Below are positions 17,693 through 36,143 of a stretch of DNA of 51,342 nt, piece after piece; the first letter of the stretch is position 1; every line of letters begins with the position of its first letter. Where the stretch lies: NCBI GenBank assembly GCA_035719985.1, contig DASTPN010000010.1, positions 1 through 51,342 of the forward strand, written 5' to 3'. The translations under genes were made by a program, and so were the position numbers. A model generated the notes under the pieces. The model had not been told where the DNA came from. It saw only the letters and a program-made list of their open reading frames with translations, and made no database searches. The stretch is from Solirubrobacteraceae bacterium. GTDB lineage: Bacteria > Actinomycetota > Thermoleophilia > Solirubrobacterales > Solirubrobacteraceae.

Positions 17693-19300
17693 TCAGGCGT
17701 AGTAGCGAGCTATGACCTGGAGCTGGCTGAAGACGTCGTGCGAGAGGAACAGGATCACAATCGCCGCCGCAGTCGCCGGCGCCCATCGCCGGCCGGCGCC
17801 ACGGACTGCGAGCGTCAGTATGGCTCCGAGCAACGGCAGCATCGGCAACAAGTAGCGAGGATCGCCATAGGCTTCCACATGGGAGATCACGTCAGAGTCA
17901 TACGAGGCGACCCCAACCATTGCAAACACTCCAACGGTCATGATGATGTACGTGAGAAGCTCCGGCAGACGATCACGCAAGGCGGAGCGCCGACCGAACA
18001 TCTCCCGAAGCGCAAGCAGCAAGATCAGAACCGTCGGCACCAGCGCAACGCGAACAACCCAACCGGGAAATTGCGTGTCTATCCAACCGTAGAGACCCAC
18101 GGATCGAGTGAACCACACGTCCCAGAAAGTGGACATACCCTGGAAGTAGTGCGTCATTCCCGGCAGGTACGGAAGATACAACTGCCATATGTAGCTGAAC
18201 TTGTTAAAGACAGAGCCCTCTACCGTGCCTGCTGCGCTTTCCGAGGCAATCCCGAGAACGGGTTGACTCGACGAGAGATGCAGGAGCACATCGAGCGCCG
18301 CCGGGAGAATCCCGATTCCTGCGGCGATGCCAAATGACGACCACGCGGCCGTACGTTTGAGTCGAACATCTCGTACGCACACAAAGATCAACCCGATAAA
18401 CACACCGGGCGCCAGGCCGGCGAAATTTAGCTTTGTGAGAAAGCCAACCACGATGAGAAGGCCCGTCACGACGGCAAGAGGACGACTGAGGCCACGGCGG
18501 AACGCGCGGGCCAGACAAAGAAACAGACCCGCAGAGACCGCGTAGAGCATGGTGTCGGGATTGAGAGTGCCCGACATGAAACCGAACAGTGGCTGAAGCG
18601 CAACGCACATTGCGCCCGCCGTCGCGGCCCACGGAACACCCGGCAAGAGCTCGCGTAGGAAGAAGAAGATCAGCAGCACCGTCAGGCCCGCCGTCAAGGC
18701 GGCTAGCAGCCTCATCAGCTGCAGCTGCCACAGCACGTTGCCTGAGCCGAGCGCATAGGGAATCGTCTGTATCGCATAGAACAGCGGTGGTTGAGACGCC
18801 GCAACTCCCGCGGCCCCCGACCCGACAGACGAAGCGTTGGCGTCAACGGCGCGCGTGAGCCCTTCTTGCTGAGCGGCAGACGATATTGCCGGCACTTGCG
18901 GTTTCAACCGTATGGCAGCCTGATTTAGTTCGCTCAATACAAGCGACTCCGCGGGAGACTCGGGTTCGGAGCCCGGTCGAGGCAGTTTGCCCGTTTCGGC
19001 GAGTAGCTGGACGTAAGCAAAATGGTCAGGCTCGTCGCGACCCTGAAACGGCGGCGTGATGATTGACCACGCAACCCCGTTGAGAATCGCGATCGATACG
19101 CATGTCCATGCGATTGCCGGGATCCTTGCGAAGATGCTGCGCAGATCGATCGAAGGCCATCGCCAGGCTCGCGCGACCCGGCCGCTAATCGACCGTCCTG
19201 GCATCGAGCGCCTCCCGCCTGCATCCAGGCTCCTGTTGAAGGAGCGTGACCCGACGGCGGCCTTGCCCGACTTAGCGCCCGGGCGACGTGTCTTGGTCAC
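17693..19300 (-). CDS. DUF2142 / GT-C-like polytopic membrane glycosyltransferase, copy 1
   Basis: WSIITPPFQGRDEPDHFAY acidic first loop, PPLFY, LNPDT, TKL, PRYLLP; more than 10 hydrophobic segments; GTG start overlaps the upstream TGA (GTGA). Confidence 0.75.
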   Translation of the reverse strand: MTKTRRPGAKSGKAAVGSRSFNRSLDAGGRRSMPGRSISGRVARAWRWPSIDLRSIFARIPAIAWTCVSIAILNGVAWSIITPPFQGRDEPDHFAYVQLLAETGKLPRPGSEPESPAESLVLSELNQAAIRLKPQVPAISSAAQQEGLTRAVDANASSVGSGAAGVAASQPPLFYAIQTIPYALGSGNVLWQLQLMRLLAALTAGLTVLLIFFFLRELLPGVPWAATAGAMCVALQPLFGFMSGTLNPDTMLYAVSAGLFLCLARAFRRGLSRPLAVVTGLLIVVGFLTKLNFAGLAPGVFIGLIFVCVRDVRLKRTAAWSSFGIAAGIGILPAALDVLLHLSSSQPVLGIASESAAGTVEGSVFNKFSYIWQLYLPYLPGMTHYFQGMSTFWDVWFTRSVGLYGWIDTQFPGWVVRVALVPTVLILLLALREMFGRRSALRDRLPELLTYIIMTVGVFAMVGVASYDSDVISHVEAYGDPRYLLPMLPLLGAILTLAVRGAGRRWAPATAAAIVILFLSHDVFSQLQVIARYYA

Positions 19301-19968
19301 TCGAATCCCCTCCAAACAGCTCGAAGCGACAAACCGCCCACGATGGCCATAAGTCCAAGGACGAGTAGCGAAACCCAAGTTCCGGCCAGCACGTGGCCGA
19401 CCCCGAGGTGACGAGCAACAGAAAGCCCTCGCGACCACCAGGAGCCGTCGCCGTTGGCCAGATATTCGACTGTCAGCCTGCCGCCCAATGCTTGGCCAGA
19501 GCGCGATACCGCCGCTTCACGCGTCGGGGTGTCAAAGCCTATGAGCGCTATCGACTCGCTGTTGGAAGTAACGTCAAAGCAGAGCTTTGCGGGGTACACC
19601 GTCCGATCGACCGGTCTTACTGGGATTGTCACCATGCCCCCGGTCCAATCCGGGGCTCGGCTGCCTTCGGTGATCAGGCGCGAGCGCGAATAGACCTTCA
19701 CATGCACTCGGAACCCAAACGTCGCGTCCAAACCGAGCCGGATCGCCGACGTTCCCGCGGGAAGTGCTTCATTGGCTTGGCATGCTGCGGCACCCTTGGT
19801 CGCCGTGGCGAGTTCCGCCGACTCGGGGGCATTGGCGCGGAGAACCCGAGGGGGCGCACGGCTGAGCGTCCAAGCGCCGACGGCCACCGCGAGTGCGACA
19901 CACGCGATCGTCGCTACCTTCAAACCCTTGACGCCTTCCATCTTTCCCCGAATCACATAAGATTCCAC
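19297..19968 (-). CDS. hypothetical membrane-anchored protein (N- and C-terminal TM, Cys pair), copy 1
   Basis: 223-aa ORF clearly paralogous to 31193..31873 (CQ..E.LPA..SAIR, W....VTIPV.P, KLC, VEYLA....SWWSR..SVARH.G.GH..AGTWV); start uncertain. Confidence 0.8.
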   Translation of the reverse strand: MESYVIRGKMEGVKGLKVATIACVALAVAVGAWTLSRAPPRVLRANAPESAELATATKGAAACQANEALPAGTSAIRLGLDATFGFRVHVKVYSRSRLITEGSRAPDWTGGMVTIPVRPVDRTVYPAKLCFDVTSNSESIALIGFDTPTREAAVSRSGQALGGRLTVEYLANGDGSWWSRGLSVARHLGVGHVLAGTWVSLLVLGLMAIVGGLSLRAVWRGFE

Positions 19969-20146: not shown

Positions 20147-20428
20147 CTATGTCCGTTGGGACGATTCCGGCACGAGCGTCCGATCGGGATACTCAAGCTC
20201 CTCACCGCAGCGCGTGCACAGCGCGTCGTAGGCCGTGGTGAGGCGCCCGCATTTCGGGCAACGTCGATGCGGCTCGTCTCGGTCGAAGCGGTAGGCGATC
20301 GCGGCCAGCAGGCCGAAGATCGGCACCGCTCCGGAGATCAGGAACCACAGCCAGAAGGAGCTCCCCTTGATGCGCCCGACAATGCCGCCGGCGAGAGCGA
20401 AGCAGAAGGCTATGACGACGTAGGCCAC
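20147..20428 (-). CDS. small membrane protein with C-terminal zinc ribbon
   Basis: two hydrophobic helices followed by CPKC-x10-CTRC. Confidence 0.75.
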   Translation of the reverse strand: MAYVVIAFCFALAGGIVGRIKGSSFWLWFLISGAVPIFGLLAAIAYRFDRDEPHRRCPKCGRLTTAYDALCTRCGEELEYPDRTLVPESSQRT

Positions 20429-28152: not shown

Positions 28153-29061
28153 ATGCCAAGGGCCATGACGATCGACCGGGAGGTTCGCCGCTTCTGCGAG
28201 CGTATTGCGCGCGACGCGGAGCATGTCCGTATCGACCTCGACGTCATTGCCGACATCGTCCCAGCCGAGCCGCCGGCACCCGACGGCGAGCGTCACTTTC
28301 TGGAGGGGTCTCCTGCCGACGTCGCAGACTACGTGCTAGCGCTGGATGCAATCAATTTTGGCTCGGGCTGGTTTCCAACGCTGCGCAAGCGGCTGGCTCA
28401 TGGCGAGCCGGTTAGCGGCTATTTCACAATCGCATGGAACCTCACAGACCACGTACGCACGCACGGTCCGCCGACAAGCCGGTGGCTGGCGCAGGTGACT
28501 AGCGTGGAGATCGCCGCCATCTTGGGGCAGGACCCGGGCAACGAGTTGATGAGCCTGTACGCCCAGGCGCTGCGTGAGCTAGGCCGTTTCTTGGCTGGAC
28601 CGCCCGCCCGCCGAGCGCTCGACCTGGTCGACCACGCAGGCGGCTCGGCTGTGCGCCTGGCCGATCTCGTCAGCAGCGGGATGAGGATGTGGGCAGACCG
28701 CGGCTTCTACAAGAAGCGGGCTCAGATTCTCGCAGCCGATCTCGCAATGGCGGGAGTGGCCGAGTTCGAGGATCTCGATCGCCTGACGATCTTCGCTGAC
28801 AACCTCGTCCCCCACGTCCTGCGCTGCGACGGAGTGCTCGTATACGACGACGCTCTCGCTGCCCGAATCGACGCAGGGCAACGATTGCAGTTGGGCGGCG
28901 CCGAGCGCGAGATTAGAGCGTGCGCGCTACACACCTGCACGCTGATCTCACAGCGCACCGGGATCGCCGAGCGCGAGATCGACAACTGGCTATGGACGCG
29001 TGGACAGGCACCTGAGTACAAGTCCCGCCCGCGCCATCGTTGCCGGACTGTCTTCTATTAG
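28153..29061 (+). CDS. queuosine salvage family protein (DUF2419 / Qng1-like)
   Basis: LDAINFGSGW, GY, FYK(K)RAQI, LTIFADN.VP.VL, E.EIRA, ID..LW..GQ, H..RTVFY; start may be ATG 28165. Confidence 0.85.
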   Translation: MPRAMTIDREVRRFCERIARDAEHVRIDLDVIADIVPAEPPAPDGERHFLEGSPADVADYVLALDAINFGSGWFPTLRKRLAHGEPVSGYFTIAWNLTDHVRTHGPPTSRWLAQVTSVEIAAILGQDPGNELMSLYAQALRELGRFLAGPPARRALDLVDHAGGSAVRLADLVSSGMRMWADRGFYKKRAQILAADLAMAGVAEFEDLDRLTIFADNLVPHVLRCDGVLVYDDALAARIDAGQRLQLGGAEREIRACALHTCTLISQRTGIAEREIDNWLWTRGQAPEYKSRPRHRCRTVFY

Positions 29062-29798
29062 CCCCCGGCGGGGCTTGGGCCCTTGACGGTGCGCAACGGA
29101 CGCACATCCTCGGGCGGGGCGGTCTCCTCGCCGGAGATCTCTGCAACCGCTCGCTCCAGCGCGCCGATGCGGGAGGCGAGACCCTGAATCGCCTCGGCGA
29201 TCGGATCGGGTAGGTGGATCCAGTCGGCGTCCGGACCCTCGGGGCGACGGCCTTCCACGCGGACGGGATGACCAGGGTTACCGACAACCGTCGAGTTCGG
29301 TGGCACGTCGGTGATCACGACGCTGTTGGCACCGATCTTGGCGCCATGTCCAATGACGATCGGGCCGAGCAGCTTTGCGCCTGAGCCGATTGTGACGTTG
29401 TCCTGCACTGTCGGGTGACGCTTGCCGGTGGCAAAGCCTGTACCGCCCAGCGTTACGCCCTGGTAGAGCGTGACGTTGTCGCCGATCTCGGCGGTCTCGC
29501 CGATCACGAGCCCGGAGCCATGGTCGATGAACAGGCCTCTGCCGATAGTCGCAGCCGGATGAATCTCGATGCCGGTCAGCATGCGGGAAAGAAAAGCGAT
29601 CAGCCGCGGCAGCAGCGGGACGTCGGACTCGTGCAATGCATGGGCGAGTCGGTGCGCCAACAGCGCCTGGATACCAGGCCAGGTGGCGACGATCTCAAGC
29701 TGCGCCACTTTGCAGGCCGCGGGATCGCGGTCACGCGCAGCTTTGACGTCTCGGTGCAACTCCTTGGCCACCCGCGTTACGATCCCGATGCCTGGCAT
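29058..29798 (-). CDS. cysE: serine O-acetyltransferase
   Basis: RDPAA, TGIEIHP.A.IG, FIDHG.G.VIGET, TLGGTG, KRHPT, hexapeptide repeats; start ATG 29798 after TACGCT. Confidence 0.96.
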   Translation of the reverse strand: MPGIGIVTRVAKELHRDVKAARDRDPAACKVAQLEIVATWPGIQALLAHRLAHALHESDVPLLPRLIAFLSRMLTGIEIHPAATIGRGLFIDHGSGLVIGETAEIGDNVTLYQGVTLGGTGFATGKRHPTVQDNVTIGSGAKLLGPIVIGHGAKIGANSVVITDVPPNSTVVGNPGHPVRVEGRRPEGPDADWIHLPDPIAEAIQGLASRIGALERAVAEISGEETAPPEDVRPLRTVKGPSPAGG

Positions 29799-29982
29799 AG
29801 GCAGAGCGTAGCGTCCAAGGGAGTGTTTCCTACCGAAATTGAGACGGTGGTTGACGCATCGTGCTATGTGATTCCACACTCTGTTGAACTGTTAGTTCAT
29901 TCAGCATTCCTCAGGTACGATCTGAAATTGTGCACGGTTCGCTCATATCGAACGAGCTGAGATCTAACTTGACCACGCGGCG

Positions 29983-31182
29983 GTGGACTGGATGAGTGTC
30001 CACGCCACGCCGATCTCTGCGCCGCCGGCCCAATTCGAGCAACCCACCGTGGCGGAGCCCGTAGTGTCAGTGGTGATTCCGTGCCTGAACGAGGCCGGCA
30101 GCGTTACGCAATGTGTCGAGACCGCGCTGGCCACCTTGACCGAAGCCGACATCCCAGGCGAGGTGATCGTCGTCGACAACGGCTCGACTGACGGCAGTTA
30201 CGAACTCGCCGAGGCGGCCGGAGCCCTCGTCGTACACGAGCCTCGGCGTGGCTACGGCAGCGCATACCTGGCCGGATTCGCCTCGGCATCGGGCACTTAC
30301 GTCGTGATGGCCGACGCCGATATGACCTACGACCTGCGCGAGATACCCCGCTTTCTCGCTGAGCTGCGCGACGGCGCAGACATGGTAATCGGAGATCGGA
30401 TGTCGAAAATACATTTAGGAGCGATGCCGTGGCACCACCGCTACATCGGTAACCCGCTGCTCTCCGGGCTGCTCAACGCCTTCTTCCATGCCGGGGTTCG
30501 CGACGCCCACTGCGGCATGCGCGCCTTCCGCCGCGACCGGCTCGACCAGTTGCAGCTGCGCGCTACCGGCATGGAGTTCGCTTCGGAGATGGTCGTGCGC
30601 GCGACACGCGAGCGGTTGCGGATTCGCCAGGTGGACATCGAGTACCTGCCTCGAGACGGCGAGTCGAAGCTCTCGAGCTTTCGTGATGGCTGGCGCCATC
30701 TGCGTTTCATGCTGCTGCATTCCCCCAGTCATCTCTTCATCCTGCCGGGCGCTGCCGTGGCGACGCTGGGCGCTCTCATCTCAGCGATGGTTCTCGGCCA
30801 GGTGGACATCTTCGGGCGCCAATGGGATCTACATGCGCTGATCGGCGGCGCGCTGCTTCTGATCGTCGGAGCTCAGATTACGAGTCTCGGCCTGTGCGCA
30901 CACGCATACGCGACCTACTTCATGGATTACAGCGAGCGATGGTTCGATCGGTTGCGCGCACGCCTGCGACTCGAGCATGGCCTGATGCTGGGCAGTGCGA
31001 TCACTTGTGTAGGGGTTGCTATCAGCGCCTACATCGCCACGCGCTGGGTGGCGCGCGGTCTCGGCAGCCTCTCCCAGGAGCGTACGGCGATACTTGCCGC
31101 CACCTTGATAGTGCTCGGCTTGCAGGTGATCTTCTCTTCCTTCCTGCTCAGCATCCTCGGTCTACGAAGGGACCGCGCTTGA
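29983..31182 (+). CDS. GT2 glycosyltransferase (DPM1-like, probable polyprenyl-phosphate sugar synthase) with C-terminal TM domain
   Basis: SVVIPCLNE, VVDNGSTD, GYGSA, DAD, DAHCGMRAF, GMEFASEM, GESKL..FRDGWRHL; four C-terminal TM segments. Confidence 0.9.
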   Translation: MDWMSVHATPISAPPAQFEQPTVAEPVVSVVIPCLNEAGSVTQCVETALATLTEADIPGEVIVVDNGSTDGSYELAEAAGALVVHEPRRGYGSAYLAGFASASGTYVVMADADMTYDLREIPRFLAELRDGADMVIGDRMSKIHLGAMPWHHRYIGNPLLSGLLNAFFHAGVRDAHCGMRAFRRDRLDQLQLRATGMEFASEMVVRATRERLRIRQVDIEYLPRDGESKLSSFRDGWRHLRFMLLHSPSHLFILPGAAVATLGALISAMVLGQVDIFGRQWDLHALIGGALLLIVGAQITSLGLCAHAYATYFMDYSERWFDRLRARLRLEHGLMLGSAITCVGVAISAYIATRWVARGLGSLSQERTAILAATLIVLGLQVIFSSFLLSILGLRRDRA

Positions 31183-31192
31183 CAGGCACAAC

Positions 31193-31873
31193 GTGTCGCC
31201 GGCGCCGGCACGAACGCCGACTGCGCGCCGACCGATGATTGCCGCCCGTACAGCGTTGGCGCTCAGCGTTGCGACGATGCTCGTCCTGATCGCTGTCACG
31301 CTGACCAGATCGCCCGTGCGCGTCGTCCGCGTCGGGGAGCCGAGGCCATTGAAAACTCTCGGCTCCACGACTGGCCCAATCAGCGTATGCCAGGAAGGTG
31401 AAACCCTGCCGGCGAAGGTTTCTGCGATCAGGGCGGGCCTGGAAGGATCACTCGGCCCGCCGGTCTTGTTGCGAGCCTTCGCTGGTGGACGCATTGTCGC
31501 CGAAGGAAGCAGGAGCGGCAATTGGACCGACGACACGGTCACGATACCCGTAAAGCCTCTGAGCGCAGGCGCTCACTCCGTCAAGCTCTGCCTGTACGTC
31601 CGACACAACGACGAGTTACTTCAGCTCTACGGCGCTGCCAGCGGGTCACATCTTGCTGCCTACTCAGCTGGCGGACAGAGACTTCCAGGCCGCTTCAGCG
31701 TTGAATACCTCGCCTCTGACGGCAACTCGTGGTGGTCACGGGTAGTTTCGGTGGCACGACACGTCGGGATCGGTCATGCATTTGCCGGGACCTGGGTCGC
31801 GCTCTTGCTTGCCATGCTGGTGGCGGCGCTCGCCAGCTTGCTCGTGGGTCTCGCCTGGAAGGAACTACCGTGA
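31193..31873 (+). CDS. hypothetical membrane-anchored protein (N- and C-terminal TM, Cys pair), copy 2
   Basis: paralog of 19297..19968; starts 10 bp after the GT2 stop. Confidence 0.8.
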   Translation: MSPAPARTPTARRPMIAARTALALSVATMLVLIAVTLTRSPVRVVRVGEPRPLKTLGSTTGPISVCQEGETLPAKVSAIRAGLEGSLGPPVLLRAFAGGRIVAEGSRSGNWTDDTVTIPVKPLSAGAHSVKLCLYVRHNDELLQLYGAASGSHLAAYSAGGQRLPGRFSVEYLASDGNSWWSRVVSVARHVGIGHAFAGTWVALLLAMLVAALASLLVGLAWKELP

Positions 31874-33459
31874 GCTCCAGACGAGACCTGCGCGACGATC
31901 GCTCGTCGGTCGGATCGCGCGCCTTTCGAAGACAGAGGCGACAGGCACGCGCGCGTCGGCAACGGCGTGCGATGACGCGCATGCAAGCACGGATGCGCGC
32001 GGCGCCCAGGACGAACATACGTGCACTGTTGCGAGGCATACCGGCGGCAGCCTGGATTTGCGCTCTGGTGGCGCTACTCAACGGCGTAGCGTGGTCGATC
32101 ATCACACCGCCGTTTCAGGGTCGCGACGAGCCATCTCACTTCGCCTACGTGCAACAGCTCGCCGAGACGGGTACGTTGCCGCACGAAGTCGCCGAAGGCG
32201 GTGGCCCCTCCCCGCGGGAGAACAAGGCTATTGAAGGGCTTCACCAATATGAAATCATGCTGGCACCAGAGGTACCGGCGATATCTTCGGTCAGCGAGCA
32301 ACGCGCCCTGAAGAACGACCTGAGCGAAGAACTCTCGCCAGTGGGGTCCGGTGAAGCCGGCGTCGCCACATCAGAGCCGCCCCTCTACTACGCGCTCGAG
32401 ATTGTCCCTTACGCGCTGGGCGCCGGCAATACCCTCACACAACTTCAGCTGATGCGGCTCGCGGGGGCGGTACTGGCCGCACTGACCACACTCCTGGCGT
32501 TCTTCTTCCTGCGCGAGCTGCTTCCCGGCTCACCCTGGATGACAACGATCGCGACCGGCTGCATCGCCGTGCAGCCACTGTTCGGGTTCATGTCTGGAAC
32601 GCTCAATCCAGACACGATGCTCTATACCGTCTCGGCCGCCGTTCTGCTCTGTCTGGCGCGAGCCTTTCGCCGTGGGCTCAGCATGCGTCTGTCAATCGCA
32701 CTTGGCGCCGCGATTGCAATCGGTCTTGTGACCAAGCTCAACTTCATCGGTCTCTGCGCGGGCATTTTCCTCGGCCTGAGCTTGATCGGCATACGCGAAG
32801 TCCGATCTCACGGGCGCGAAGCGCTCAAGCCGATCGGTGCGGCAACGGGCATCGGCCTCTCTCCCGTCCTGCTGTACGCCGTGTTCAGTGGAGGCAGCCT
32901 CTTCTCCTCGATCGGCGACGTCATAACTTTCAACAATGGAGGGTTCTTCAAAGAGGTCAGCTACGCGTGGCAGCTGTACCTTCCGCGCCTGCCTGGAATG
33001 TCACACTACTTCCCCGGTATCGAAACCTACCGCGAGATTTGGTTCGATCGTTTCGTTGGCCTGTACGGCTGGTTGGACACACAATTCCCCACCTGGGTCG
33101 ACAATCTGGCGCTGATCCCGGCGGGGTTGATAGCGGTGCTCTGCCTCAGAACATTGGTCGTCGGTCGCGAGAGGCTGCGAAGCCGCCTTCCTGAGATTGC
33201 AACCTACGCGCTGCTCCTCATCGGGCTGCTCGTGATGGTCGGCCATTCGGCTTTCTCGAGTTATCTATCCAGCGGAGCGGCAGCATTCGGTGATCCACGC
33301 TACCTGCTGCCCGTCCTGCCTCTGCTCGCGGCCATTCTGGTACTGGCCATACGCGGTGCAGGCAGATGGGCACCTCCCGTTGCGGCCGTCATCTTGGTCA
33401 CGTTCTTGGCACACGACCTTTTCAGTCAGATGCAAACGATTGCCCGCTATTACGGGTAG
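31870..33459 (+). CDS. DUF2142 / GT-C-like polytopic membrane glycosyltransferase, copy 2
   Basis: WSIITPPFQGRDEPSHFAY, PPLYY, LNPDT, TKL, GDPRYLLP, IARYY end; GTG start overlaps the upstream TGA (GTGA). Confidence 0.75.
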   Translation: MSSRRDLRDDRSSVGSRAFRRQRRQARARRQRRAMTRMQARMRAAPRTNIRALLRGIPAAAWICALVALLNGVAWSIITPPFQGRDEPSHFAYVQQLAETGTLPHEVAEGGGPSPRENKAIEGLHQYEIMLAPEVPAISSVSEQRALKNDLSEELSPVGSGEAGVATSEPPLYYALEIVPYALGAGNTLTQLQLMRLAGAVLAALTTLLAFFFLRELLPGSPWMTTIATGCIAVQPLFGFMSGTLNPDTMLYTVSAAVLLCLARAFRRGLSMRLSIALGAAIAIGLVTKLNFIGLCAGIFLGLSLIGIREVRSHGREALKPIGAATGIGLSPVLLYAVFSGGSLFSSIGDVITFNNGGFFKEVSYAWQLYLPRLPGMSHYFPGIETYREIWFDRFVGLYGWLDTQFPTWVDNLALIPAGLIAVLCLRTLVVGRERLRSRLPEIATYALLLIGLLVMVGHSAFSSYLSSGAAAFGDPRYLLPVLPLLAAILVLAIRGAGRWAPPVAAVILVTFLAHDLFSQMQTIARYYG

Positions 33460-33543
33460 CCGGATGTCCTCGGCGCGCACAACGACACGAACCGTCGAAA
33501 ATATGAAGCGCGCATCCGCTCGCCACCGCGAGACTCGCTTAGC

Positions 33544-34488
33544 TTAGGACGGGGCGAAGAAGGATTGGGAGACGTAGCGCTCGCCCGAGTCGGGGATGAT
33601 CGTGACGATCCGCATACCCTTGGATTCGGGGCGCCCAGCGACCTGCAGGCTCACCCACAGCGCCGCGCCGCCGGAGATGCCCGCGAGGATACCCTCGCGT
33701 CGCGCGCACAGCCACGCGGTTTGGATAGCATCGTCGTCGGAGACCGGGATGACCTCGTCGATCAGCTCGCGGTTGAGGACGGGCGGAACGAAGCCCGCAC
33801 CGATGCCCTGGATGCGGTGCGGACCCGGCTGCGCCCCGGAGAGCACGGCCGAGCCTCGCGGCTCGACGGCAACGACGCGCAGGTCGGGGTTGCGCTCGCG
33901 CAGGTACTCGCCTACGCCGGTGATCGTGCCGCCGGTACCCACTCCCGCCACCAGCACGTCGACGCGGCTATCGAGAGCCTCGTAGATCTCGGGGCCGGTG
34001 GTGCGGCGATGCGCCTCGGGGTTGGCTGGGTTCGAGAACTGGTCTGGCAAGAAGACATCACGGTCGCGAGCCATCTCCCGGGCTGCCTGGACGGCCTCGG
34101 TCATACCACCCAGCGACTCGGTGATCTGGACCTTGGCGCCATAGAGCTTCAGGAGGATCTCGCGCTCGCGGCTCATTCCTTGAGGCAGAGTGAGCGTCAG
34201 GTCATATCCCTTGGCCGCGCAGACGAACGCGAGCGCGATTCCGGTATTGCCGCTGGTGGCCTCGACGATAGTGCTGCGCCCCGGCTCGATCTGCCCTTCA
34301 GCCTCGGCGGCTTCAATCATGGCAACGCCGATGCGGTCCTTGACGCTGCCACCCGGATTAAACGACTCGAGCTTCGCGTAGAGCTCCGCGCCAGAACTGG
34401 CCGCGGCGCCCTGATCGAGCAGACGCTCGATACGCATAATCGGCGTTTTGCCGACCAGCTCAGAAATGTTGACCGGGATTGACGGCAT
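33544..34488 (-). CDS. cysK: cysteine synthase A
   Basis: KLESFNPGGSVKDR (PLP Lys), EATSGNTGI, QFSNPAN, GVGTGGT, PHRIQGIGAGF, DSGERY; start approximate. Confidence 0.96.
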   Translation of the reverse strand: MPSIPVNISELVGKTPIMRIERLLDQGAAASSGAELYAKLESFNPGGSVKDRIGVAMIEAAEAEGQIEPGRSTIVEATSGNTGIALAFVCAAKGYDLTLTLPQGMSREREILLKLYGAKVQITESLGGMTEAVQAAREMARDRDVFLPDQFSNPANPEAHRRTTGPEIYEALDSRVDVLVAGVGTGGTITGVGEYLRERNPDLRVVAVEPRGSAVLSGAQPGPHRIQGIGAGFVPPVLNRELIDEVIPVSDDDAIQTAWLCARREGILAGISGGAALWVSLQVAGRPESKGMRIVTIIPDSGERYVSQSFFAPS

Positions 34489-34967: not shown

Positions 34968-36143
34968 CTACAACCAACCGCGCTCTGTGGCGATCAACAC
35001 CGCTTGCGCGCGGTCGACCGCGCCAAGCTTGCCGTAGATGTTGTGCAGATGCGTGCGCACCGTGCTGGTAGACAGAGTCAGCTCGTGGGCGATCTGCTTG
35101 TAGACCTTGCCTTCGGCCAGCCGCTCGAGCACACCCAGCTCGCGTCCTGACAGCGGGCACGGATCGACCATACGTTGGCGTTGGGCTTGGGAGTTCGGCA
35201 GTTCATACATCACTCTGCGCAGTTCCTCAGGCCCAAGCCCGAGCGAGCGCGCACAGGCGAGCATCTCAGCCGGCGCGACCGGCGCCCCGTGTGCGTAGTG
35301 GGCAAGCATGTCGGCCAGGCGCACGAGTGCGGCCTCGCCGCTTGCGTCGGCGTTGTGATGGCGCTCGATCACGGTGGCGATGCTGGCTGGAAGTCCCCAG
35401 CGACGGGCGAGCACGCCGCCGACCAGTGCGTGGTCGACGCCCAACTCGCGGCGTTCGCGGTGAATGCGCTTCTCGGGCGTCTGCTCGCCCTTCTGTACTT
35501 CGCTTGCATAGCCAGGATAGGCCTGAACGAGCACCAGCTTGCCTACGTCGTGCAAGAGGCTTGTGACGGTAAGCCGGTCACGATGCTCATAGCCGACCTC
35601 GGCGGCGAGCCGGTCGGCCGCCTGCTGGGTGGCAAGCGCATGCAGCCGGAAGCGCTCGGGCGCGGTGTCCCAACCGCCGGTGCGCTCGAAGAAGTCAAAG
35701 GTACGTACTCGATTCGCAAGCCCCACCACAGCCTGCGCGGTCAACCGCTCGACCGCCTGCACGACCGTTTCCACGCGCTCGCCGCTAGTACGAGCGTCGT
35801 TGGCCAGGCGCATCACGGCGATGATCAGCGCGACGTCGGACTCGACGGCGGTGACGACGTCCGCGGTGGCGACATTGTCCTTGGAGATAACGGCCAACAA
35901 CCGCTCGCGCGACTCTGAGAGGGCGGGAAAAGCATCGAGCGCCTCGAAGGCAAGCATCAAACGACGACCGTGCCCCTCGTTCTGATGGCGCTCGCCGCTA
36001 CCGGCGCTTGCGAGCGCGACGCTGCCGCCCTGACCCACTCGTTCAGAGTCAGCCGGCGACCGGTCGAGCCGGGCGCCTTCGGGTTGCTGCTTTGTTGCTG
36101 TCGCCTGTGTTGGCATAGAACCTTGCCTGTGAATGGGAGGCAT
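34968..36143 (-). CDS. HDOD-domain protein with C-terminal LuxR HTH
   Basis: FPALS, VESD.AL...VMRLAN, LLHDVGKL, DHA.VGG.L.RRW.LP, HH; C-terminal LSGRE..VL..LAEG..YKQIA.EL.LS.STVRTHL.NIY.KL; start uncertain (36143 or 36116). Confidence 0.88.
   Translation of the reverse strand: MPPIHRQGSMPTQATATKQQPEGARLDRSPADSERVGQGGSVALASAGSGERHQNEGHGRRLMLAFEALDAFPALSESRERLLAVISKDNVATADVVTAVESDVALIIAVMRLANDARTSGERVETVVQAVERLTAQAVVGLANRVRTFDFFERTGGWDTAPERFRLHALATQQAADRLAAEVGYEHRDRLTVTSLLHDVGKLVLVQAYPGYASEVQKGEQTPEKRIHRERRELGVDHALVGGVLARRWGLPASIATVIERHHNADASGEAALVRLADMLAHYAHGAPVAPAEMLACARSLGLGPEELRRVMYELPNSQAQRQRMVDPCPLSGRELGVLERLAEGKVYKQIAHELTLSTSTVRTHLHNIYGKLGAVDRAQAVLIATERGWL

Follow-up and report, generated by a model that had tools for sequence, protein, structure and literature searches.

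A three-gene cassette from a Solirubrobacteraceae bacterium encodes a likely lipid-linked sugar synthase and a predicted GT-C glycosyltransferase with a linked jelly-roll partner

In transmembrane glycosylation systems with three or four components (GtrABC, CsdAB/CflA, GacIJKL of Streptococcus pyogenes, and SccN/P-SccM/Q), the gene for a glycosyltransferase family 2 (GT2) polyprenyl-phosphate-sugar synthase lies beside the gene for a glycosyltransferase of the GT-C fold (PMC9574508, PMC11754754). The Scc system of Streptococcus mutans comprises two GT2s and two GT-Cs, its flippase is unknown, and its rhamnan is ABC-exported (PMC11754754); CflA of the Lactococcus lactis CsdAB system is encoded in trans (PMC9574508), and further multicomponent systems, including WpsH/I/J, are covered in PMC9574508 and PMC10821137. 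Here we describe a three-gene cassette in a stretch of 51,342 nucleotides (the window), which is contig C10 (GenBank DASTPN010000010.1) of the 2.3-Mb, 90.7% complete assembly GCA_035719985.1 of a Solirubrobacteraceae bacterium.

The cassette resembles GtrABC- and Scc-type systems in that a GT2 gene accompanies a GT-C gene, the flippase is possibly encoded elsewhere, a link to an ABC-exported glycan is suggested, and several GT2/GT-C sets occur per genome. Unlike in those systems, a third tightly linked gene encodes a predicted membrane-anchored jelly-roll subunit of the GT-C enzyme (hereafter the partner), the GT2 has four predicted C-terminal transmembrane helices and no GtrA match, and the GT-C gives 1–7 matches per genome within the genus (match counts rather than copy numbers), at variable sites. 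The pathway logic is well known, and what is new is the linked, sometimes fused, membrane-anchored jelly-roll subunit, which defines a large unnamed family. The literature searched, outside which most subscription papers fall, describes neither the three-gene cassette nor any split GT-C that has a subunit of this type, and reports nothing characterised for such systems in this order, in keeping with an earlier note on this DNA that called the pathway undescribed. The cassette and its paralogs are as follows (window positions):

29983..31182, plus strand: GT2 gene, 399 amino acids (aa), PF00535 with four predicted C-terminal transmembrane helices, 'satellite' clade of its GT2 subfamily
31235..31873, plus strand: partner gene, 212 aa (longest open reading frame, ORF, from 31193), assigned by AlphaFold2 (AF2) model, fold matches, and hhalign
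31855..31873, plus strand: split junction, with a Shine-Dalgarno (SD)-like AGGA at 31860-31863, then a GTGA start/stop overlap at 31870-31873
31870..33459, plus strand: DUF2142 (PF09913) GT-C gene, 529 aa from the GTG of GTGA, assigned by Pfam and predicted AF2 fold
32125..32130, plus strand: codons for the D86-E87 pair of the first external loop, which is presumed to be catalytic and is invariant in 67/67 aligned homologs
19297..19941, minus strand: second partner paralog (cassette 1), 42% identical, with a GTGA overlap with its own GT-C and without an adjoining GT2
17693..19300, minus strand: the DUF2142 GT-C of cassette 1, a second paralog with 53% identity

The ORFs bear out the arrangement given in the earlier note, three plus-strand genes with a GTGA overlap between minus-strand cysE and cysK, and all five motifs quoted in it are found in both GT-C paralogs. 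The tight packing it described holds at the GTGA overlap but not for the 10-bp gap between GT2 and partner; the partner start is more likely ATG 31235, as judged from the call in the public protein set and from homolog lengths, than 31193, so the gap is about 52 nt. That note did not recognise the partner and the GT-C as one protein in split form, nor the module as part of an order-wide family tied to a Wzm/Wzt glycan cluster.

The genomic association between the partner and DUF2142 is nearly complete. In 61 genomes, 93 of 94 partner hits adjoin or are fused with a DUF2142 gene (85 directly upstream or fused, 8 directly downstream), and the lone hit is a 46-codon partial near a contig end. Reciprocally, 93 of 99 DUF2142 loci have a partner hit, and of the remaining six, two are fragments at contig ends. 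Before partner hits were crossed with GT-C matches, the overlapping pieces of frameshifted genes were merged; the partner profile was built partly from the same loci, so the scores are not independent, but the whole-genome search was able to reveal lone partners and, that one partial apart, revealed none. Alignment by hhalign of 76 split partners with the N-termini of 12 distant fused proteins gives a probability of 98.4 (E 4.6e-15, 205 columns), and in all 120 long matches listed (of 171) the partner module lies N-terminal to a GT-C core with the P..DE..H motif. Since the partner is almost always beside or fused to DUF2142, it is likely a second chain, a detached subunit of the transferase, rather than a flippase, and the two chains would be expected to bind each other. 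The source names of partner and fused-form homologs are Solirubrobacteraceae and Solirubrobacterales. The partner family counts 1,996 representatives (E<=0.001, 50%-clustered library), and most of the 150 best public ones are stand-alone proteins of 200–230 aa.

Fused forms are 700–800 aa long, and in quick trees of the GT-C core, like all our trees supported by the Shimodaira–Hasegawa-like approximate likelihood ratio test (SH-aLRT) only, N-fused proteins make up two deeper groups. The downstream-split forms (9 rows, SH-aLRT 99) and the upstream-split forms, among them close relatives of the window copies (24 rows, SH-aLRT 98), are separate clades that both keep the partner, and re-fusions are nested within the upstream-split clade, three of them as one clade (SH-aLRT 97). 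A single-clade origin of the fused forms is rejected by the approximately unbiased (AU) test (p-AU 1e-42). The simplest reading is at least two separate splits; the root of the GT-C tree is uncertain, so that the order of split and fusion events is tentative. In the downstream-split clade, one DUF2142 protein (L074:7037-8698, genome G041) carries the partner's last helix and transmembrane segment as a C-terminal tail, without the jelly-roll. The match of that tail is strong (40.9 bits, 0/300 shuffles), those of L141 and L087 are weak (9.2 and 7.4 bits), an unrelated tail, L172, also reaches 1/300, and no partner-like C-terminal tail was seen in 12 DUF2142 proteins tested from outside the order, so that a general C-terminal tail of this kind is a lead only.

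At the 42 upstream-split junctions analysed (40 from relatives and the window's two), the partner ends in ATGA or GTGA in 40, and an SD-like word lies 5–15 nt before the GT-C start in 32, against a mean of 3.7% in 15 control windows. The second residue of the GT-C is serine in 31 of the 42, and a slippery heptamer is found at none (0/42). Because the same ATGA or GTGA junction and SD-like words recur, with no slippery heptamers, programmed frameshifting is rejected. The letters of the SD-like word are shared with the codons for the Arg-Glu-Leu that ends the partner, and protein and RNA constraints are therefore inseparable. The junction sequence suggests that translation of the partner and the GT-C is likely coupled at GTGA.

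The third protein matches DUF2142 with an E of 1.4e-29 (103.6 bits, cut-off 30.1, model positions 1-395) and PMT_2 with an E of 1.4e-8; PF02366 gives no match to the window proteins at E<=0.01 and is a weak label on some fused homologs. Its AF2 model, built from 67 homologs, has a predicted local distance difference test score (pLDDT) of 93.8 and matches Pmt4 (Z 19.9, root-mean-square deviation (rmsd) 4.2, 363 residues aligned), AglB (Z 19.3), ALG12 (Z 19.1), AftB (Z 18.3), and ArnT (Z 18.0), with aligned spans of 330–365 residues at Z 18–20. Foldseek likewise matches the model to GT-C enzymes. The model thus predicts a GT-C fold with the acidic pair D86-E87 in the first external loop, after the first transmembrane helix, and agrees with the earlier assignment of this protein as GT-C-like. 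Besides the acidic pair, the invariant residues are W75, K289, and R477. The N-terminal tail is Arg-rich, about 45 aa long and variable, and its VGSRxF motif, absent in several homologs, is not a core feature. GT-C matches occur in 45 of the 61 genomes searched and in 32 of 36 within the genus. DUF2142 is mentioned in PMC12599335, PMC9746298, and PMC8313283, and lactococcal and streptococcal members of the same Pfam family (WpsI/WpsJ-like proteins and those of Streptococcus thermophilus rgp loci) have a proposed GT-C role in wall-polysaccharide assembly (PMC12599335, PMC9746298).

The AF2 model of the partner (pLDDT 88) consists of a transmembrane helix, a beta sandwich (residues 26-164), an amphipathic helix, and a second transmembrane helix, and the sandwich is predicted to be an extracytoplasmic jelly-roll. 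Its fold matches are the lectin-like domain of Cwp84 (Z 10.7, rmsd 3.4, 131 residues) and, at Z about 7, CBM6 and others; carbohydrate-binding modules (CBMs) are known on GT-C enzymes (PMC11127046). C52 and C119 are invariant in 96 sequences, as would be expected for an outside-facing disulfide. The partner has no Pfam, NCBIfam, or PDB sequence match, and none of 96 family members matches GtrA or DUF2304. The structural searches proposed earlier thus point to a GT-C fold for the third protein and to a jelly-roll with two transmembrane segments for the partner. In the ESM Atlas, the partner model resembles part of an 845-aa DUF2142 cluster, mostly from Bacillota, at a TM-score of 0.63 over 172 residues, below the bar for naming; as a model-based lead only, the pairing of partner and DUF2142 may predate the order.

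An architectural parallel is EmbB, in which TMH1, a jelly-roll, and TMH2 precede the GT-C core (PMC7305291), a layout mirrored by partner plus core, with the GT-C model aligning to EmbB only from about residue 250 (Z 14.6–14.8). In contrast to mycobacterial EmbA/B/C and AftD and to Citrobacter GT136, all GT-C enzymes that carry CBMs, the module here is a separate gene, and the donor synthase is a GT2, not a phosphoribosyltransferase. Emb proteins are about 1,100 aa with a C-terminal CBM, longer than the fused partner/GT-C forms, Emb chains are not among the partner's top 50 fold matches, and the partner has no Pfam match to Emb domains.

The GT2 matches PF00535 in Pfam (E 1.7e-26), and a transmembrane scan finds four hydrophobic C-terminal segments. 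Its PDB sequence matches are ArnC (3.5e-18), in an alignment spanning residues 27-316 with two transmembrane helices included, and DPMS (1.7e-13). The best NCBIfam models are AglJ (3.4e-49), PpgS, and ArnC, all under cut-off, with AglJ at half of its own. AglJ is a dolichyl-phosphate hexose transferase, and the ArnC, DPMS, and AglJ-type families synthesise polyprenyl-phosphate sugars. By its sequence, the GT2 is likely a polyprenyl-phosphate monosaccharide synthase, the type proposed in the earlier note, and to this extent agrees with the membrane-anchored GT2 synthase of GtrABC. The cassette parallels ArnC/ArnT and Ppm/Pmt in its ArnC-like GT2 and in a transferase of predicted GT-C fold whose first external loop carries an acidic pair, but lacks ArnD, ArnE, and ArnF genes and a MIR domain, and its scores lie under the family cut-offs. 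It also differs from the four-component GacIJKL and WpsAB systems, having no DUF2304 activator beside a GT2 without transmembrane helices, and a partner that is not DUF2304.

The GtrABC locus also holds a GtrA/Wzx-type flippase gene, which the cassette lacks. The C-terminal 160 aa of the GT2 have no GtrA match at E<=1 in a sequence search only. The earlier statement that no GtrA-like flippase is present is right for the cassette, but the genome has two GtrA-family genes elsewhere, both on different contigs and one of them next to a further GT2, comparable to CflA of L. lactis. True DUF2304 genes are separate in related loci, and DUF2304/GacI-like pairs lie near other family members (L043, L075).

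A second full-length GT2 paralog, 63% identical, is encoded on contig C103 of the same genome, and the earlier proposal that one synthase feeds two transferase-partner pairs is weakened, since this sharing is not forced here. In many relatives partner/GT-C units exceed GT2 copies, for example 4:1 in G034 and G036, which fits donor sharing in general. Within the GT2 subfamily, 33 of 52 hits immediately precede a partner gene in the same orientation, 2 are convergent with one, and 5 are within 3.5 kb. In a quick tree of 35 GT2s, the window GT2 and 9 others, from dispersed cassettes, form one group (SH-aLRT 99), and the C103 GT2 joins 22 from the main glycan cluster (SH-aLRT 99). In the 13-row clade that contains the window GT-C, no other member has such a GT2 close by, while the window GT2 belongs to the satellite clade; given this mismatch, a mosaic origin of the window operon is possible. 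At L050, L051, L060, L063, L066, and L069, partner/GT-C units stand in tandem, two or three to an array, and four of these arrays follow a single GT2.

A partner profile run over 301 genomes across the phylum, with only 10 candidates per genome scored and two true hits missed, gave matches in four genomes of the order and a single weak, partial match outside it; among 29 DUF2142 loci taken with 1.5-kb flanks, partners were present at 5, all inside the order. Wzm/Wzt, WsaF-like, or conserved GT4 (glycosyltransferase family 4) markers lie within about 7 kb of 36 of the 37 deeper-branching loci. In this genome the main surface-glycan cluster (L133-L134, G000:C103) contains GT4s, a DegT aminotransferase, a GDP-mannose dehydratase, a Gfo/Idh oxidoreductase, and the second GT2, together with a WsaF-like transferase, wzm, and a wzt with a C-terminal CBM. 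The satellite-type loci (L033-L069), in the neighbourhoods listed, lie at varied housekeeping junctions, sometimes in tandem, and the window copies are dispersed satellites of an order-wide family tied to the Wzm/Wzt glycan cluster. A polytopic family of about 790–800 aa without a Pfam match at the thresholds used often lies between the GT2 and the partner or near them (for example L070:9598-11985, L041:9832-12240, and L075:4109-6463), and at L149 and L150 partner/GT-C units lie among genes resembling a dTDP-rhamnose (rml) operon, as judged from N-terminal sequence only.

Our favoured reading, which we hold to be somewhat probable, is that the cassette adds side chains of a single sugar to a Wzm/Wzt-exported glycan through donor synthesis by the GT2, flipping in trans, and transfer by a two-chain GT-C. 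The GT2 would load a sugar from a nucleotide donor onto polyprenyl phosphate at the cytoplasmic face, as its family suggests, and the lipid-sugar would then be flipped, likely by either of the two GtrA-family proteins in trans or by the GT2's own four transmembrane helices. The DUF2142 protein, with its predicted fold, would transfer the sugar outside the membrane via D86-E87. The partner, which by homology, linkage, and fusion is a detached transmembrane–jelly-roll–helix–transmembrane module of the same enzyme, would likely be co-produced through translational coupling, stabilise the core, and present the acceptor. The acceptor is likely the glycan of the Wzm/Wzt cluster that holds the deeper-branching members, and the satellite copies would add alternative decorations. 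As in GtrABC, where a side-chain sugar is placed on a finished glycan, gene context would point to the same role for the cassette. Families, predicted folds, linkage, fusion and fission, and junction anatomy are the observations from which we infer the chemical steps, the binding of the chains, and the acceptor.

Several points weigh against this decoration of an exported glycan by a two-chain enzyme. None of the 37 satellite-type loci has Wzm/Wzt markers nearby, so their link to that glycan is indirect, and the GT-C slot of the main cluster in this genome is occupied not by DUF2142 but by two other GT-C-like ORFs, of 761 and 726 aa, which have an LDE motif and match Pfam slightly or not at all. 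Twelve of the 52 GT2 subfamily hits have no partner nearby. The genomes used for linkage are kin, so the counts are not independent, and linkage by itself would be expected to produce the correlation of partner and GT-C distances (Mantel r 0.92). The partner jelly-roll is matched nearly as well by domains of phage capsids and baseplates (Z 10.2 and 9.8) as by the lectin-like domain, so the fold is no proof of sugar binding, and the residues listed as conserved in a wide alignment include no aromatic one on the distal beta-sheet surface. The top fold matches of the GT-C tie between enzymes with protein acceptors (Pmt4, AglB) and those with glycan or lipid acceptors (ALG12, AftB, ArnT), and activity, donor, and acceptor are all putative.

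The same two-chain GT-C could instead glycosylate secreted or surface proteins, in the manner of Pmt or AglB, with the partner recruiting protein acceptors, which we consider unlikely. Pmt4 and AglB are the best fold matches and Pmt1 is the sole PDB sequence-profile match of the GT-C (E 0.017), but the scores of ALG12, AftB, and ArnT are tied with theirs to about 2 Z units; the best NCBIfam model of the GT2 is AglJ, an enzyme of S-layer N-glycosylation, but at the low score given above. Large ORFs that look secreted (clusters 39-40) are found close to five satellite loci, whereas 36 of the 37 deeper-branching loci carry the ABC-transporter glycan-cluster markers, and the assignment of DUF2142 proteins in lactococci and streptococci is to the assembly of cell-wall polysaccharide (PMC12599335, PMC9746298).

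A further step down in probability, and in our view quite improbable, is a polymerase and co-polymerase pair like lactococcal WpsI/WpsH, in which DUF2142 would join lipid-linked oligosaccharides and the partner would set chain length. WpsI is a DUF2142 protein, and WpsH has two membrane anchors and one large outer loop (PMC12599335, PMC9574508), so the partner is alike in topology. Unlike the WpsI/WpsJ systems, however, the satellite cassettes have one GT2 only, usually without elongating transferases, a Wzx gene, or repeat-unit genes, the partner is fused, upstream, or downstream according to clade, and Wzm/Wzt of the main cluster export finished chains. The partner is moreover a predicted beta jelly-roll, often fused to the enzyme, whereas Wzz proteins are helical and oligomeric.

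It is very improbable that the partner is the missing flippase, as the earlier note had suggested, or a GT2 activator like GacJ or WpsB: it often directly follows the GT2 (33/52) in a cassette without GtrA, but it tracks the GT-C rather than the GT2, with many DUF2142-linked copies lacking a GT2, has only two transmembrane segments around a large soluble domain, corresponds to the N-terminal part of fused DUF2142 proteins, and coexists with the separate DUF2304 genes and in-trans GtrA genes noted above. We give as little credence to the view that the split reflects misassembly, gene breakage, or programmed -1 frameshifting and that partner and GT-C are really made as a single fused chain: nearly all splits place the GT-C in the -1 frame relative to the partner, often with that frame open far upstream, fused forms are common, and the assemblies of several relatives are visibly frameshift-prone, but the junction recurs in loci from many genomes with the anatomy described above, the public representatives are mostly stand-alone, and downstream-placed partners cannot arise by frameshift.

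The cassette is a genuine insertion between two flanking genes that are normally adjacent:

29058..29795, minus strand: cysE, start at 29795, normally directly downstream of cysK
33544..34485, minus strand: cysK, end at 33544

Synteny, the check proposed earlier, was assessed at 40 loci taken from 45 cysE matches in 48 relatives, and upholds the claim. cysK lies 27–209 nt upstream of cysE at 29 of the 40, the gap is 565–1334 nt in seven order-level loci, unrelated inserts of 1.9 and 4.5 kb separate the genes at two loci of the genus, and cysK was not scored at the remaining two. The GT2, partner, and GT-C give zero tblastn matches (E<=1e-6) at any of the 40. The GC content at third codon positions is 0.68–0.77 in five cassette genes and 0.76–0.88 in ten other window genes, a mild sign only. 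No sigma-70 promoter was found in 29500-33800, and the one terminator-like site there is at chance level. No target duplication was seen by eye at the insertion ends, a repeat finder not having been applied, and a small share of one DNA sequencing run gave only short pieces on the region, with the junction not bridged; no RNA sequencing run was listed as containing this DNA. The site of cassette 1, ilvB/VIT-gatB, is also occupied in the relative G029 (L033).

Other features of these neighbourhoods were also recorded. Many unrelated insertions occur at the rrf2-cysK-cysE-pcrA junctions of relatives, and in G034, of the same genus, another GT-C-like gene (L096:7423-9060, PMT_2, E 5.6e-11) lies between cysK and cysE on the strand of the cys genes. 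In the window, a queuosine salvage gene (PF10343, 28153-29061), patchy among relatives, lies between cysE and pcrA, and a regulator with HDOD/HD and a LuxR helix-turn-helix (34968-36143) lies directly upstream of rrf2-cysK, conserved order-wide. Upstream of cassette 1, a 93-aa ORF (20147-20428) has two transmembrane-like segments and a C-terminal CxxC...CxxC zinc-ribbon-like motif.

These findings give an unnamed family of 1,996 representatives without a Pfam model a concrete role, likely as the second chain of a DUF2142 transferase. The natural fused, upstream-split, and downstream-split forms provide a ready test of accessory jelly-roll function in GT-C enzymes, a role left open for the accessory domain of GT136 (PMC11127046), and the two-anchor 'co-polymerase' genes beside DUF2142 in other bacteria may be open to reinterpretation. 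More speculatively, and with doubtful standing in our view, the order may possess a heterodimeric GT-C class in which a separate membrane-anchored lectin-like subunit, split off at least twice and re-fused several times, selects the acceptor, and in which subunit exchange among paralogs routes one lipid-linked donor to different glycans. If this is true, subunit exchange among dispersed paralogs would generate combinatorial surface variation. The cassette thus offers a lead on the function of DUF2142 and on the cell envelope, so far unstudied, of an abundant order of soil bacteria.

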